Shown: piece by piece, positions 16,352-20,721 of the stretch
How positions within the stretch are numbered: position 1 is the first letter of the stretch
Layout: each line of letters opens with the position of its first letter
From: Escherichia phage 121/2022-2B
Length of the DNA stretch: 64,000 nucleotides
Direction: 5' to 3' (one strand)
Sequence record: OR958571.1
The notes under the pieces: model-generated
What the model saw: only the letters and a program-made list of their open reading frames with translations
What the model was told of the DNA's origin: nothing
Database searches by the model: none
Program-made: the position numbers and the translations under genes

Positions 16352-16741
16352 TTAATCCAAAATATTATTAGGCATTGGTTGAACACTCACAAGTTCTTTA
16401 AAGAACTCAGTAGAGTCAGGCAATTTAACCATTTCCGGAGCATGCTTACTGAATTTATGTTTACATTGACGGCATTTATATTCAAGCTCTGGTTTACGCC
16501 AGTTAATCAATTGAACTTGTTCAGTACCGCATTCAGGGCAATTAGGAACGTTTTTAGAAGCTCTTTCACGTCGTTCAACTATAGCCATAATAGCATCCCA
16601 TGCTGGAGGTTTAAAATCTAAATCGTCGCAGCCGTGAATCTTTCCACGCATTTCCATATCATCTTCCTCACCAGCCATAATAATTTTAATTAAACTGGAA
16701 TTACTTGAAGCTGCAATGTCTTCTAATAAACGCTTTTTCAT
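16352..16741 (-). CDS. hypothetical zinc-ribbon protein
   Basis: 129 aa; CPECGTE...x16...CRQCKH four-cysteine motif. Confidence 0.5.
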
Positions 16742-17664
16742 TTCAATACCTCAATAGCATTACGTAAACCATTTGCTTTGGCGGTTAAAGCCTTAAGAAC
16801 TTTAGTATGCTCTTCAATCTGTTTTTCAACTTCAATCAAACGGGCACTGAGATATTCGCGTTCTTCTTTCATAGTATCATTTCCATGATTGGATTTTGGT
16901 GTAGGTTTAAATTCACTAGGGTCCTTTAATTTAATAACAAATTTAGTTTCAAACAGCGAAAGACCATAATTCGTATTATCATCAAAGGATTTGACTACAT
17001 CCATATCAGATAATAACACGCGTAAATTATAAGCCAAAGAACTAATAGTTTCATTGTGTTTATTAGCTTCGCGTGGTTTCATATACGGAAGATTTTTATA
17101 TATCTCGTGCGGAGCACAAATGATAATTGACAATTCAAATTGCCCATTCTGGGACGATGGAGTGAATTTAGCCGTAACCCAGTCTTTTACATTCACATTA
17201 ATAGTACGGTTATCACCATGACAAAACAGTCTACGAGAATGCTTAAAAAGCATATTCACGTTATTATTGAATTCGTGTGAAAATTCACTAGCAAATTTTT
17301 CTTTACTATCTTTAGAAAACCATTCTTCTAAATAAGTTCTTTTCACGTCGTTAATAATATTAAATGTAACAACACTAGCATTTGATACATTAGTCTCAAT
17401 GTAGCTTGGATACATAAATTTTTTAACATTATTAACAGCTATCACAGAAGATAGTAATCGGGAACGTTTGAACCACTCGAGCAAAGAACCAAGAGAATGT
17501 GAATACGCATTTTGTGTATCTTTACAAATATGGTTTTCCCATCCAATATAGTCTAAAAAATCACGAAGAATATTATTGATTACTGCTCTGTGTCCTATCT
17601 GATAATTACGATGTTTAGTAATAAGACTGTCAAAATAATCAATATAATGTTTACGAGTTTTCAT
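16738..17664 (-). CDS. hypothetical protein, member of a 4-gene tandem paralog family with C-terminal coiled coil
   Basis: 308 aa; starts MKTRK; Pro-rich linker then about 40-aa heptad-repeat C-terminus. Confidence 0.55.
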   Translation of the reverse strand: MKTRKHYIDYFDSLITKHRNYQIGHRAVINNILRDFLDYIGWENHICKDTQNAYSHSLGSLLEWFKRSRLLSSVIAVNNVKKFMYPSYIETNVSNASVVTFNIINDVKRTYLEEWFSKDSKEKFASEFSHEFNNNVNMLFKHSRRLFCHGDNRTINVNVKDWVTAKFTPSSQNGQFELSIIICAPHEIYKNLPYMKPREANKHNETISSLAYNLRVLLSDMDVVKSFDDNTNYGLSLFETKFVIKLKDPSEFKPTPKSNHGNDTMKEEREYLSARLIEVEKQIEEHTKVLKALTAKANGLRNAIEVLK

Positions 17665-17716
17665 GTTCTTCTCACTTGGTTAATGATTTATACTCCGAGC
17701 CATCCTTGGCTTTAAA

Positions 17717-18718
17717 TTACTTAATTAACTGTAAAGCTTGTTCCAGACGATCAAGACGATTAACAGATTCTTCCCAAATCCTTTTAGCCTGCTCATATTC
17801 TTTCTGCGCTTTATTAGAAATTTCTAGAACTTCTTTATAAGCTTTTTCTAGTGCAATAACTTCTGGACGAATTTCTATCGGTTCAGGTGAATCATCAAGA
17901 CATTCCATTAGTTCCTCAAGGGTAGTTTCTTCTTTAGGAGTATTCACAATTTCATCACATTTTTGTTGGTAAATTTCTTTATCAGTAGGTGAATAAGCAC
18001 ATTTCACTTCACGAAGGCTAATTACGAGTTTATATCCTTCCCAACCGCATATATTCTTAAAAGGATATGTATGAATATTTTCTACTGTTTCCATACAAAG
18101 TAATGCGGTCTCTAATTGACGAGTTATAGTGCTAGCAATTGAGAAAAATTTATTAATATTCTTTTGGTTAGTTTCTGGTGTAAAAAATCCATAATTCACA
18201 AAAATAGATACTTTATTTTTATCAAGTTCATATTCTTTTATGATAATCATATCAGAAGCCAAAGGATGAATTTGACGATAATCGCCATAACATAATTTAG
18301 AAGCTGATTTTAGAATTTGTTTCTTAAAAAGTCTGAAATTACTGATCCAACGACGAGTAAAAATATTCTCAGGGTCTTCTTTAATATTAAGATGATAAGA
18401 ATTAACATCACCGAACCAATTGTATCCTACTACATCTTTAGTTCGTTTAATTTCTTTCCCAAAATTACCAAGAATATCCCGATTAACCAAATATGAAAGA
18501 AGACGAGACTCTTTAAAGGTTTTCTTGATAACATCTTTATCTACACGGCTAGAAATTTTACGAATTTCATGAATAAATTTAGTAGAAGAAACAATACTTG
18601 CATCAACACTATTGAGCCATTGATTGATAATAGAAAGAACGCTATTTTGGCCAAACATCGGTATAGCTTTATCATCAATAACGCTATTGAATGATTTGAT
18701 ATATTCGTTACGAGTCAT
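17717..18718 (-). CDS. hypothetical protein, tandem paralog family member (start set to ATG at 18718 with GAGGAG RBS)
   Basis: Track ORF 17717..18769; shares FRLFKKQILKSASKL-like block with the next gene; C-terminal coiled coil. Confidence 0.55.
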   Translation of the reverse strand: MTRNEYIKSFNSVIDDKAIPMFGQNSVLSIINQWLNSVDASIVSSTKFIHEIRKISSRVDKDVIKKTFKESRLLSYLVNRDILGNFGKEIKRTKDVVGYNWFGDVNSYHLNIKEDPENIFTRRWISNFRLFKKQILKSASKLCYGDYRQIHPLASDMIIIKEYELDKNKVSIFVNYGFFTPETNQKNINKFFSIASTITRQLETALLCMETVENIHTYPFKNICGWEGYKLVISLREVKCAYSPTDKEIYQQKCDEIVNTPKEETTLEELMECLDDSPEPIEIRPEVIALEKAYKEVLEISNKAQKEYEQAKRIWEESVNRLDRLEQALQLIK

Positions 18719-18746
18719 AATAATCTCCTCAGTAGAAAGTAAAAAC

Positions 18747-18776
18747 ATTATACCACATCCTTGTGGCAAAGTAAAC
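18747..18776 (-). promoter_or_regulatory. T4-type early promoter
   Basis: GTTTACT, 17-bp spacer, TGGTATAAT. Confidence 0.55.
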
Positions 18777-19801
18777 TAGTTCAGTGCATTTAGTGCATTG
18801 TTCAGTTTAGAACGTTGCTTTGTCAGATTTTGAACCCTTGACTGAGCTTGTTCTAACGCCTTTTCAACTTCTAGCACTTCATTGGTCGCTTTAACGAGTT
18901 CATCATCTACTGCCTTAAGAGACTTCTCAATCGCGTCAGCGTGCCATTTTTCTACAGGTTTAAAATTTGAATTTTCAGTAGGAAGAAAACTCACTTTATT
19001 AAGTTTACATGCATCTATATTGCTTGAGCTATACATCCAAAATTTAGGATCGTTTGATAAGTAATTGGATAAATTTAAATTTAAGGTATCTTGCACTTCC
19101 TGCTTTTTCTCTTGAACAATTTCATCCTTTCTCAAAAATTCATATTTAAATGAAACGATCATATCAAGTTCATATGTTGTTGTATGTTCCCAATTTCGCT
19201 CAAAACGAGGTAAAATCTTAGATTGAACAGCAGCAACAACATCCATATACTTAAATGCTTCTGTCAGCTGTGATTTAAGACATTCACAAATTGAAAGAGA
19301 ATTTTTAGTATTAGGCTTAAAGCTAATTCGTGCAGTTCTGTTATTTTCTTTTAATGGTCTTACTTCCATCTGAAGAGTATAACCATCAAATTTCAGGTTC
19401 TTTAAGTTAATGTCAGAACCTTTTAATCGACTAGCCGTCGACAAAATTTGCTTTAATTGTCTACGGAACAGAGCAATAAATCTCCATTCAATACGATAAT
19501 GATTTGGATTGAAAAATCCAGATGATAAATCGACCTTACTTTGACCAACGCCTTGAACAAATAGAGGATTTTTATAATCAATAGTTTTACAGAAATCGGT
19601 GAGCTGCTCACGAGCCGTCATTTGTGTAATATACCCCGCTTTACTAAAATGACGTAACCATTCACTGCTATTCATATATTTAAAGTGAATATCACGATTA
19701 ACTTTATCAGGGTCTAAATTATTTTGGCACAAAAATGTCATAACATCACGAGTATAGCTGGCATTACGAACCATATCTTCAATTTGAGAACGAGTTTTCA
19801 T
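18776..19801 (-). CDS. hypothetical protein, tandem paralog family member
   Basis: 341 aa; starts MKTRS; LFRRQLKQILSTASRL block; C-terminal coiled coil. Confidence 0.55.
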   Translation of the reverse strand: MKTRSQIEDMVRNASYTRDVMTFLCQNNLDPDKVNRDIHFKYMNSSEWLRHFSKAGYITQMTAREQLTDFCKTIDYKNPLFVQGVGQSKVDLSSGFFNPNHYRIEWRFIALFRRQLKQILSTASRLKGSDINLKNLKFDGYTLQMEVRPLKENNRTARISFKPNTKNSLSICECLKSQLTEAFKYMDVVAAVQSKILPRFERNWEHTTTYELDMIVSFKYEFLRKDEIVQEKKQEVQDTLNLNLSNYLSNDPKFWMYSSSNIDACKLNKVSFLPTENSNFKPVEKWHADAIEKSLKAVDDELVKATNEVLEVEKALEQAQSRVQNLTKQRSKLNNALNALN

Positions 19802-19809
19802 GGTGTTCC

Positions 19810-20721
19810 TTAAGATTTAAGTAAATCGACAATTTTAATTAACTTTTCACGCTCAGATTTAGCTTTACTACTCAGTCCAGATAGTCTGAAAATTTCATCA
19901 TCATATTGTTGAATAGAAATATTCAGCTCTTCAATCTGTTTATTAAAATAATCAATTTGTTCAGAATGTTTTTCGTTACTACGAACTGGTACAGGTTTCG
20001 TAGGCAATGTAGTTGAACTGGATTCATCCGGGCGATAAATTAAAATACAACTTGAACCAATAGGGCATTTTGCACCAGATGAATATTCTAATGTTCCAGC
20101 TTCTTTTAAAACTTCAAAAGCTAAACAGAGATGATGCCCCATATTAACATAATCTGCAGAGTGAGCTCTGATATAATAATCATCGCCACGAATACTAAAT
20201 TTAAAGCATTTAAGGTCTTCTGTATTATTGGTCTTAAAAATCATTTGTTTATCTAGACCTTTAGCTAATCGAGCGCCTAATGCTAATAATCGTCTTTGAT
20301 TTTCCCACAAATCCGCAATCATTTGATCGAATGATAATTTTGGCATCAGTCGACCGTAAAGGTCATATCCTTTATTATAATTACGAAGGATTTCACTCGC
20401 GTTAATACGAGACAATGCTCCAATTTTATTAAGGGCTTTCATAATGCGATTAGATAAACTCATTCCAGATCCGTTTGTTCGCTGCAAATGTTTTTCTAAT
20501 CCAAATCCAATATCAACTTTAAACTTATCTAAAATTTCTGCATGAACATCTCTGTCGATAACATTCAAATCCAAAGTTGAGTTAAATCTATGAAAAAATT
20601 TATCTGGCTCTGCACTGCGAAATACAGTCCATTCATTCATCATTTTTTTATTAACTAAAGATTTAATTACTGCATTGACATTATTAATTACTACTGACAT
20701 ATTTTCCTCACTCAATTTCAA
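19810..20721 (-). CDS. hypothetical protein, probable tandem paralog family member
   Basis: 303 aa; same architecture (globular N-domain, Pro-rich linker, C-terminal coiled coil). Confidence 0.5.
   Translation of the reverse strand: MKLSEENMSVVINNVNAVIKSLVNKKMMNEWTVFRSAEPDKFFHRFNSTLDLNVIDRDVHAEILDKFKVDIGFGLEKHLQRTNGSGMSLSNRIMKALNKIGALSRINASEILRNYNKGYDLYGRLMPKLSFDQMIADLWENQRRLLALGARLAKGLDKQMIFKTNNTEDLKCFKFSIRGDDYYIRAHSADYVNMGHHLCLAFEVLKEAGTLEYSSGAKCPIGSSCILIYRPDESSSTTLPTKPVPVRSNEKHSEQIDYFNKQIEELNISIQQYDDEIFRLSGLSSKAKSEREKLIKIVDLLKS

Follow-up and report, generated by a model that had tools for sequence, protein, structure and literature searches.

The 64,000-nucleotide stretch of DNA analysed here, hereafter the window, comes from Escherichia phage 121/2022-2B (OR958571.1) and is a segment of a T4-like Tequatrovirus genome, with bases 16000–21200 98.3% identical to Escherichia phage vB_EcoM_JB75. 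Within this region, four consecutive open reading frames (ORFs) on the minus strand are the orthologues of T4 nrdC.3, nrdC.4, nrdC.5 and nrdC.6 by the T4 annotation, with 92–99% amino-acid identity. One side of the set is bordered by nrdC, nrdC.1 and nrdC.2, the opposite side by nrdC.7 to nrdC.10. Even in T4, which has been studied more closely than any other phage, about half of the genes are still without a function. The four genes have long been annotated in T4; what is new is the unification of three database families as one paralog array around the gene that counters the defence protein Dsr1. The array is not a new kind of system.

A preliminary description of the window had placed four ORFs here in tandem, all of which are present on that strand and at those coordinates, and had remarked that two of the proteins start with MKTR, as NrdC.3 and NrdC.5 do. 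The region is common in sequence databases: 595 phage records match bases 16000–21200, and 462 of them cover at least 80% of the region.

Sequence evidence for one superfamily

Databases treat the four proteins as three unrelated families of unknown function. In PHROGs, NrdC.3 and NrdC.4 fall together in phrog_1435, NrdC.5 is phrog_2351, equivalent to Pfam DUF7235, and NrdC.6 is phrog_2257. Every window protein matches one of these families, or Pfam DUF7235 (PF23882), PF26897 or PF26899, over its full length and with a high score; all of these families are joined here in one superfamily. NrdC.5 scores 387.9 bits against DUF7235, for which the cutoff is 30, and spans model positions 1–307 of 307; the other three proteins stay below the gathering cutoff, NrdC.3 reaching 11.4 bits through its C terminus only. 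Searches of Pfam, NCBIfam and PDB sequences with the four proteins returned no informative family beyond domains of unknown function, no solved relative and no defence-related model.

Compared pairwise by BLASTP, four of the six pairs are non-significant, and the best two are NrdC.3–NrdC.4 (E 0.002) and NrdC.3–NrdC.5 (E 0.004), the latter match being confined to the coiled coil. We rejected pairwise BLASTP as the sole test of homology: it is too insensitive, and taken alone it would wrongly have suggested that the proteins share no significant similarity beyond composition. Family alignments were built from database homologues and the RB14, RB69, T4 and dhaeg loci, and compared profile to profile with hhalign. 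The NrdC.3 and NrdC.4 families match with a probability of 98% (E 3e-14), the NrdC.4 and NrdC.5 families with 72% (E 3e-5, 243 colinear columns) and the NrdC.3 and NrdC.5 families with 46% (E 2e-4, in the globular part). A merged profile of the NrdC.3, NrdC.4 and NrdC.5 families matches NrdC.6 with 36% (E 3.9e-4, 115 columns). As controls, the template alignment was reversed, which keeps composition and helicity; E values were then 0.09–0.72, as opposed to 3e-14 to 4e-4 in the true orientation, so that the similarity does go beyond composition.

Identity between families is 15–22% in a MAFFT alignment of all four, and the alignment is colinear, with shared motifs such as FKESRLLSYLVNRDILGNF / FKRSRLLSSVIAVNNVKKF / FSKAGYITQMTAREQLTDF / LNKIGALSRINASEILRNY, followed by an F..N...IL..A.RL..G helix and then L..AL..M..V. 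Written out, the colinear core motifs found in all four proteins are F-K-x-S-R-L-L-S...L..F, F..N...I-L..A-x-R-L..G..R and L..A-L..M..V. Within the core motif helix, the R/K and G positions rank with the superfamily columns of lowest entropy. The block that the preliminary description had noticed in two of the genes, FRLFKKQILKSASKL / LFRRQLKQILSTASRL in nrdC.4 and nrdC.5, is real and belongs to a motif found in all four proteins, with the counterparts NMLFKHSRRLFCHG in NrdC.3 and LWENQRRLLALGARLAKG in NrdC.6.

Intermediate sequences were collected by a profile search with the four-family alignment among 1.84 billion protein representatives at E <= 1e-3. The superfamily is tiny, with 30 clusters at this threshold. 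Several full-length metagenomic matches score with two or three separate family hidden Markov models (HMMs) inside the globular head. P0240 matches the NrdC.6 HMM at 7e-15 and the NrdC.5 HMM at 4e-5, P0243 the NrdC.4 HMM at 1e-5 and the NrdC.5 HMM at 2e-7, P0248 the NrdC.5 HMM at 2e-7 and the NrdC.6 HMM at 3e-4, and P0231 the HMMs of NrdC.3, NrdC.4 and NrdC.5.

Table 1 Coordinates of the array, its motifs and neighbouring features in the window (aa, amino acids).
Feature	Position	Strand	Evidence or remark
nrdC.3 orthologue (member A, c3), 308 aa	16738..17664	-	ORF; T4 nrdC.3 annotation; 92% aa identity; phrog_1435 E 6e-101
nrdC.4 orthologue (member B, c4), 333 aa	17717..18718	-	phrog_1435 E 7e-168; precomputed Pfam PF26897
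nrdC.5 orthologue (member C, c5), 341 aa	18776..19801	-	DUF7235 E 5e-116; phrog_2351; 93% aa identity to T4 NrdC.5
nrdC.6 orthologue (member D, c6), 296 aa	19810..20700	-	phrog_2257 E 2e-151; precomputed Pfam PF26899
C-terminal heptad helix, NrdC.3 (aa 260-308)	16741..16887	-	11/14 a/d hydrophobic, shuffle p 0.001
C-terminal heptad helix, NrdC.4 (aa 285-333)	17720..17866	-	10/14 a/d hydrophobic, p 0.014; AlphaFold helix 285-332
C-terminal heptad helix, NrdC.5 (aa 293-341)	18779..18925	-	13/14 a/d hydrophobic, p < 0.0002
C-terminal heptad helix, NrdC.6 (aa 248-296)	19813..19959	-	11/14 a/d hydrophobic, p 0.0008; AlphaFold helices 243-272, 277-295
Core motif helix, NrdC.4 (FRLFKKQILKSASKLCYGDYR)	18275..18337	-	one column block of four-family alignment
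Equivalents of core motif helix	17206-17256 (c3), 19406-19471 (c5), 20248-20310 (c6)	-	one column block of four-family alignment
Second core motif, NrdC.4 (FKESRLLSYLVNRDILGNF)	18461..18517	-	four-family alignment, profile comparison, column conservation
Equivalents of second core motif	17416-17472 (c3), 19592-19648 (c5), 20377-20433 (c6)	-	
Sigma-70-type promoter-like site, TTTACT-17-TATAAT with upstream TG	18747..18775	-	consensus scan, 10/12 matches; consensus match only; directly upstream of nrdC.4
nrdC.2, 129 aa	16352-16741	-	zinc-ribbon protein; Pfam Zn_ribbon_8 E 6e-6; phrog_1474
nrdC.8, 175 aa	21171-21698	-	
nrdC.10, 326 aa	22163-23143	-	P-loop protein
tRNA cluster, 10 genes	39103-39930	-	Arg, Asn, Tyr, Met/CAT, Thr, Ser, Pro, Gly, Leu, Gln

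Architecture of the proteins

Each protein is predicted to consist of a helical N-terminal region, a conserved alpha/beta core, a flexible proline-containing linker and a heptad helix of about 45–50 residues. The order of elements in the core is a helix pair, a helix-helix-turn, a hairpin, a long helix and a second hairpin. The AlphaFold models of NrdC.4 and NrdC.6, with predicted local distance difference test (pLDDT) scores of 82 and 78, follow this order equally and continue with the linker and the terminal helix. The NrdC.4 model matches JS10 NrdC.6 in BFVD (Foldseek, E 1e-5), and the two models have ten Foldseek matches in common, all from T4-like phages, with Enterobacter, Pectobacterium, Acinetobacter, Klebsiella, Erwinia, Yersinia and Serratia as hosts. 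This comparison of the heads is one of element order and common matches of monomer models.

The heptad character of the C termini, proposed in the preliminary description, holds for all four proteins: in the last 49 residues, 71–93% of a/d positions are hydrophobic (10–13 of 14; shuffle p 0 to 0.014), and the models contain long terminal helices at residues 285–332 of NrdC.4 and 243–295 of NrdC.6. The linker in front of the helix, a low-pLDDT segment in both models, is proline-rich only to a modest degree; prolines are present, but the 50 residues before the helix hold just 3–5 of the 7–10 in each protein. The helix ends in a tip, (Q/E)R-x-K-L-x-x-A-(L/I)-x-x-L-K, that is conserved throughout the superfamily, its terminal columns being among the most conserved in an alignment of 35 diverse members. 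Three of the seven most conserved columns fall in the last 10 residues, and because of this the tip probably has a specific role, more than that of a generic coiled coil.

Taken together, the profile, intermediate-sequence and structure tests lie clearly above controls although pairwise BLASTP is weak, and the paralogy first suggested by gene architecture stands. We consider the homology of NrdC.3, NrdC.4, NrdC.5 and NrdC.6 established with high confidence, NrdC.6 being the most distant member. It is very unlikely, and largely refuted, that the likeness is non-homologous, a common coiled-coil composition on unrelated heads with the NrdC.4/NrdC.5 block shared by chance. The weak BLASTP results, with the NrdC.3–NrdC.5 match in the coiled coil only, would fit such a coincidence, as would the three separate families in Pfam and PHROGs. 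However, the profile matches are colinear and lie in the globular region, the composition-preserving reversed controls score far lower, intermediates bridge the families within the head, and the NrdC.4 and NrdC.6 models share their element order and match the same proteins.

Copy number and position in T4-like phages

Applied to all window ORFs of at least 100 aa, the superfamily HMM finds exactly four members and no further paralogs in the 64 kb, the next best ORF scoring E 0.5. With the same HMM, T4 and RB14 each have four copies, RB69 and dhaeg three, and Pectobacterium phage PM2 and Klebsiella phage Metamorpho a single one. In all of these and in the window, the members lie between nrdC and nrdC.10. 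The superfamily is confined to T4-like phages. A tandem family in an accessory region, as originally proposed, is thus what the locus holds: copy number varies from one to four among T4-like genera, and the region is hyperplastic and early.

Several neighbours deserve mention. The C-terminal third of NrdC.8 is also helical and charged (...ERIETYKKQRAERQNTLRKFEERLKTVLA); the gene was rejected as a further member, as the superfamily HMM does not detect it. In PM2 and Metamorpho, an ORF of about 260 aa lies directly upstream of the one family member, namely PM2 gp095 (L005 4542–5327, 261 aa) and Metamorpho gene 213 (L006 5124–5912, 262 aa). The superfamily HMM recognises neither, and they could be a still more diverged member or an unrelated gene. 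The gene nrdC.10 is retained beside the array in all T4-like phages examined; its product has weak matches to AAA_14, AAA_22 and nSTAND3 (E 6e-5 to 5e-4), all below Pfam cutoffs.

Selection, allele replacement and chimeras

Gene-wide ratios of nonsynonymous to synonymous substitution rates (dN/dS, Nei–Gojobori), calculated for the window against T4 and RB14, are 0.08–0.34 for the four genes and 0–0.08 for nrdC, nrdC.1 and nrdC.8–10. Constraint on the array is relaxed yet purifying. Diversifying selection, which the preliminary description had inferred, is not shown by these values, which are above those of most neighbours but well below 1.

Most of the diversity seen in the array comes from recombination, in the form of mosaic allele replacement and chimeras. 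In Tequatrovirus, nrdC.3 occurs in two allele classes, with 92–100% and about 60% amino-acid identity, and the centre of the window gene has 51–73% DNA identity to RB14 between gene ends and flanks of at least 97%. Beside the array, the 3′ half of nrdC.2 (about 16330–16630) has a DNA identity of 24–73% to T4 and 97–100% to RB14, a pattern that marks it as a second local allele replacement.

Four homologues have unusual module arrangements. P0119 (299 aa, on a 167-kb contig) is a natural chimera whose residues 1–129 are the middle of NrdC.5 and whose residues 124–299 are the C-terminal half of an RB14/RB69-type NrdC.3, corresponding to window positions 18983–19369 and 16741–17265; it is a deletion that fuses nrdC.5 with nrdC.3 and loses nrdC.4. 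In P0121, the 378-aa NrdC.6 of Shigella phage Sf25, about 82 residues are duplicated in tandem within the protein. P0241 (173 aa) has an unrelated 120-residue N terminus on the NrdC.5 coiled coil, and a search for this N terminus in the window and the other phage loci compared did not find it. In P0229 (129 aa), a short foreign N terminus is joined to the C-terminal third of NrdC.6. Such arrangements point to a shuffling of modules at the linker or helix, with assembly artefacts as a possible source.

Function of NrdC.5 and a model for the array

To our knowledge, no inhibitor of the Dsr1 sirtuin defence other than NrdC.5 has been reported. A T4 clone with deletions in the accessory region does not plate on Escherichia coli ECOR17 or on K-12 carrying ECOR17 dsr1, and T4 nrdC.5, expressed alone, restores plating of T4 on Dsr1-carrying E. 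coli (Srikant, Guegler & Laub, eLife 2022, PMC9391042). According to the same authors, Dsr1, a defence protein with a SIR2 domain, likely disrupts the NAD+ of the cell (PMC9391042); the trigger of its sensor is the major capsid protein of the phage (PMC13581612). The array genes are called early (PMC9391042). The host-interaction role suggested for the family is thus experimentally backed for one member, and the statement that no function is known for any of the four is out of date, NrdC.5 being a published anti-Dsr1 gene (PMC9391042). The window gene is the orthologue of the tested one, with 93% amino-acid identity and the same flanking genes; the anti-Dsr1 activity is published for the T4 allele only, and the window allele is tied to it by orthology. 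In the literature searched for nrdC.3, nrdC.4, nrdC.6, DUF7235 and anti-Dsr1, we found nothing beyond the 2022 study, no function for nrdC.3, nrdC.4 or nrdC.6, and no mention of a relationship among the four.

Given their homology to NrdC.5, NrdC.3, NrdC.4 and NrdC.6 are therefore candidate counter-defence genes. We lean towards a reading, on balance the probable one, in which the four genes are anciently duplicated paralogs that form an early counter-defence array with variable heads and a common coiled-coil module. The array would supply early-expressed counter-defence (host-range) proteins whose diverged heads may bind different host immune proteins. In the simplest case, NrdC.5 would occupy the sensor of Dsr1 early, before the triggering late major capsid protein appears. 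The common C-terminal coiled coil would oligomerise or dock to a common partner, and new specificities would come from duplicated genes, from alleles replaced within the head and from recombination at the conserved ends.

Several observations weigh against this model. The phenotype known by experiment is that of NrdC.5 only, from one complementation experiment, and dN/dS values that stay under 1 over whole genes carry no direct mark of an arms race. NrdC.6 is tied to the others by a modest sequence similarity (hhalign probability 36%), the structural comparison covers the models of NrdC.4 and NrdC.6 out of four proteins, and Foldseek template modelling (TM) scores are low, at 0.2–0.5, because the models differ in where they put the terminal helix. 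Two array genes are frameshifted: nrdC.6 of the T4 reference (NC_000866, 11990–12920, minus strand), with the conserved end ...IFRLSGLSSKAKSEREKLIKIVDLLKS in another frame, and the RB69 gene annotated as nrdC.5 (5960–6990), with the conserved end ...NLQLQYSKLFNAMNALKS in another frame. Both frameshifts lie just before or inside the coiled-coil region and remove the coiled coil, so that either laboratory hosts do not require the module or the two copies are in decay; the frameshifts themselves are either laboratory-strain decay or old sequencing errors.

A more modest account, which we think possible yet clearly less probable, keeps the four as paralogs and gives counter-defence to NrdC.5 alone. 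NrdC.3, NrdC.4 and NrdC.6 would then have other early roles in host takeover, acting for example on host physiology or on phage DNA/RNA transactions, or they would be copies that are redundant or in decay. The literature searched reports no phenotype for these three, an identity of 15–22% between families leaves room for changed function, and there are frameshifted copies in T4 (nrdC.6) and RB69 (nrdC.5) as well as a natural phage contig with the nrdC.4-deleting fusion (P0119). On the other hand, all four genes are intact in hundreds of Tequatrovirus genomes (in 462 of the 595 records, coverage of the region is 80% or more), purifying selection acts on each of them (dN/dS 0.08–0.34), and the architecture and C-terminal tip are conserved across the superfamily. 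Moreover, the accessory region that contains the array can be deleted without loss of viability on K-12, but host range is lost (PMC9391042). Protection could also be indirect, the proteins binding the structural proteins of the phage itself (capsid, tail) or assembly intermediates and so hiding the trigger from sensors such as Dsr1. The triggering of Dsr1 by the major capsid protein (PMC13581612) is in keeping with this idea, but the array genes are early (PMC9391042) and structural proteins late, and we judge it improbable.

The paralog-array model also has a bolder form, which we hold to be equally improbable, in which the array is a modular counter-immunity toolkit and each head is a decoy or blocker of a different receptor that senses structural proteins, with the coiled coil allowing homo- or hetero-oligomers of the paralogs or their docking to one partner. 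For NrdC.5 the target would be a capsid sensor of the Dsr1/Avs7 type, for NrdC.3, NrdC.4 and NrdC.6 further sensors resembling Avs or Dsr. In that case the tail-terminator-like alpha/beta core could imitate a virion protein, and new specificities would arise by cassette-like replacement of heads between the conserved N- and C-terminal ends.

Comparison with known systems

The window gene at 18776–19801 is the orthologue of T4 nrdC.5 (PMC9391042), likewise lying between nrdC.4 and nrdC.6 and belonging to DUF7235. The other three are distant paralogs of like architecture, but they are 15–22% identical to NrdC.5 and have no reported phenotype. Similar to NrdC.5, the phage protein DSAD1 neutralises a SIR2-domain NADase defence and is reported to bind the defence protein in competition with the structural-protein trigger. 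Its target is DSR2, not Dsr1, and it lies outside any paralog array; no similarity of the NrdC proteins to DSAD1 was found in sequence or fold. The anti-toxin–antitoxin island of T4 (dmd, tifA and adfA) is likewise a non-essential early cluster in which each gene acts against a different host defence, and which varies among T4-like phages (PMC9391042). As opposed to that island, whose genes are mutually unrelated in sequence, the nrdC array consists of paralogs that probably share one fold.

Tail terminator and tail completion proteins (lambda gpU, SPP1 gp17-like and those of gene transfer agents) were considered as relatives and rejected, as identity is 5–13% and unrelated alpha/beta sandwiches score equally. 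They are late structural genes, whereas the NrdC genes are early, and the NrdC proteins add a helical N terminus and a coiled coil.

The paralogy turns three orphan genes, split over separate families of unknown function, into testable counter-defence candidates, and the superfamily defines the conserved core and the C-terminal module as targets for mutagenesis. The array would exemplify diversification of anti-defence genes by tandem duplication and cassette exchange in a phage accessory region.

Gene starts and other features of the window

Two gene starts in Table 1 differ from those of the mechanical ORFs. Comparison with homologues indicates that nrdC.4 most likely begins, as in T4, at ATG 18718 (MTRNEY...) rather than at TTG 18769, and nrdC.6 most likely at ATG 20700 (MSVVINN...) rather than at TTG 20721; the TTG starts are probably wrong because all homologues begin with MTRNEY... 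and MS(V/Q)(V/A)IN..., respectively. The extension of nrdC.4 to TTG 18769 overlaps the promoter-like site (18775..18747).

Outside the array, the G+C content of the window peaks at 0.43 at 38–40 kb because of the cluster of ten tRNA genes. The GC skew turns from negative to positive at about 44000–46000, as would be expected if the predominant coding strand switches there.

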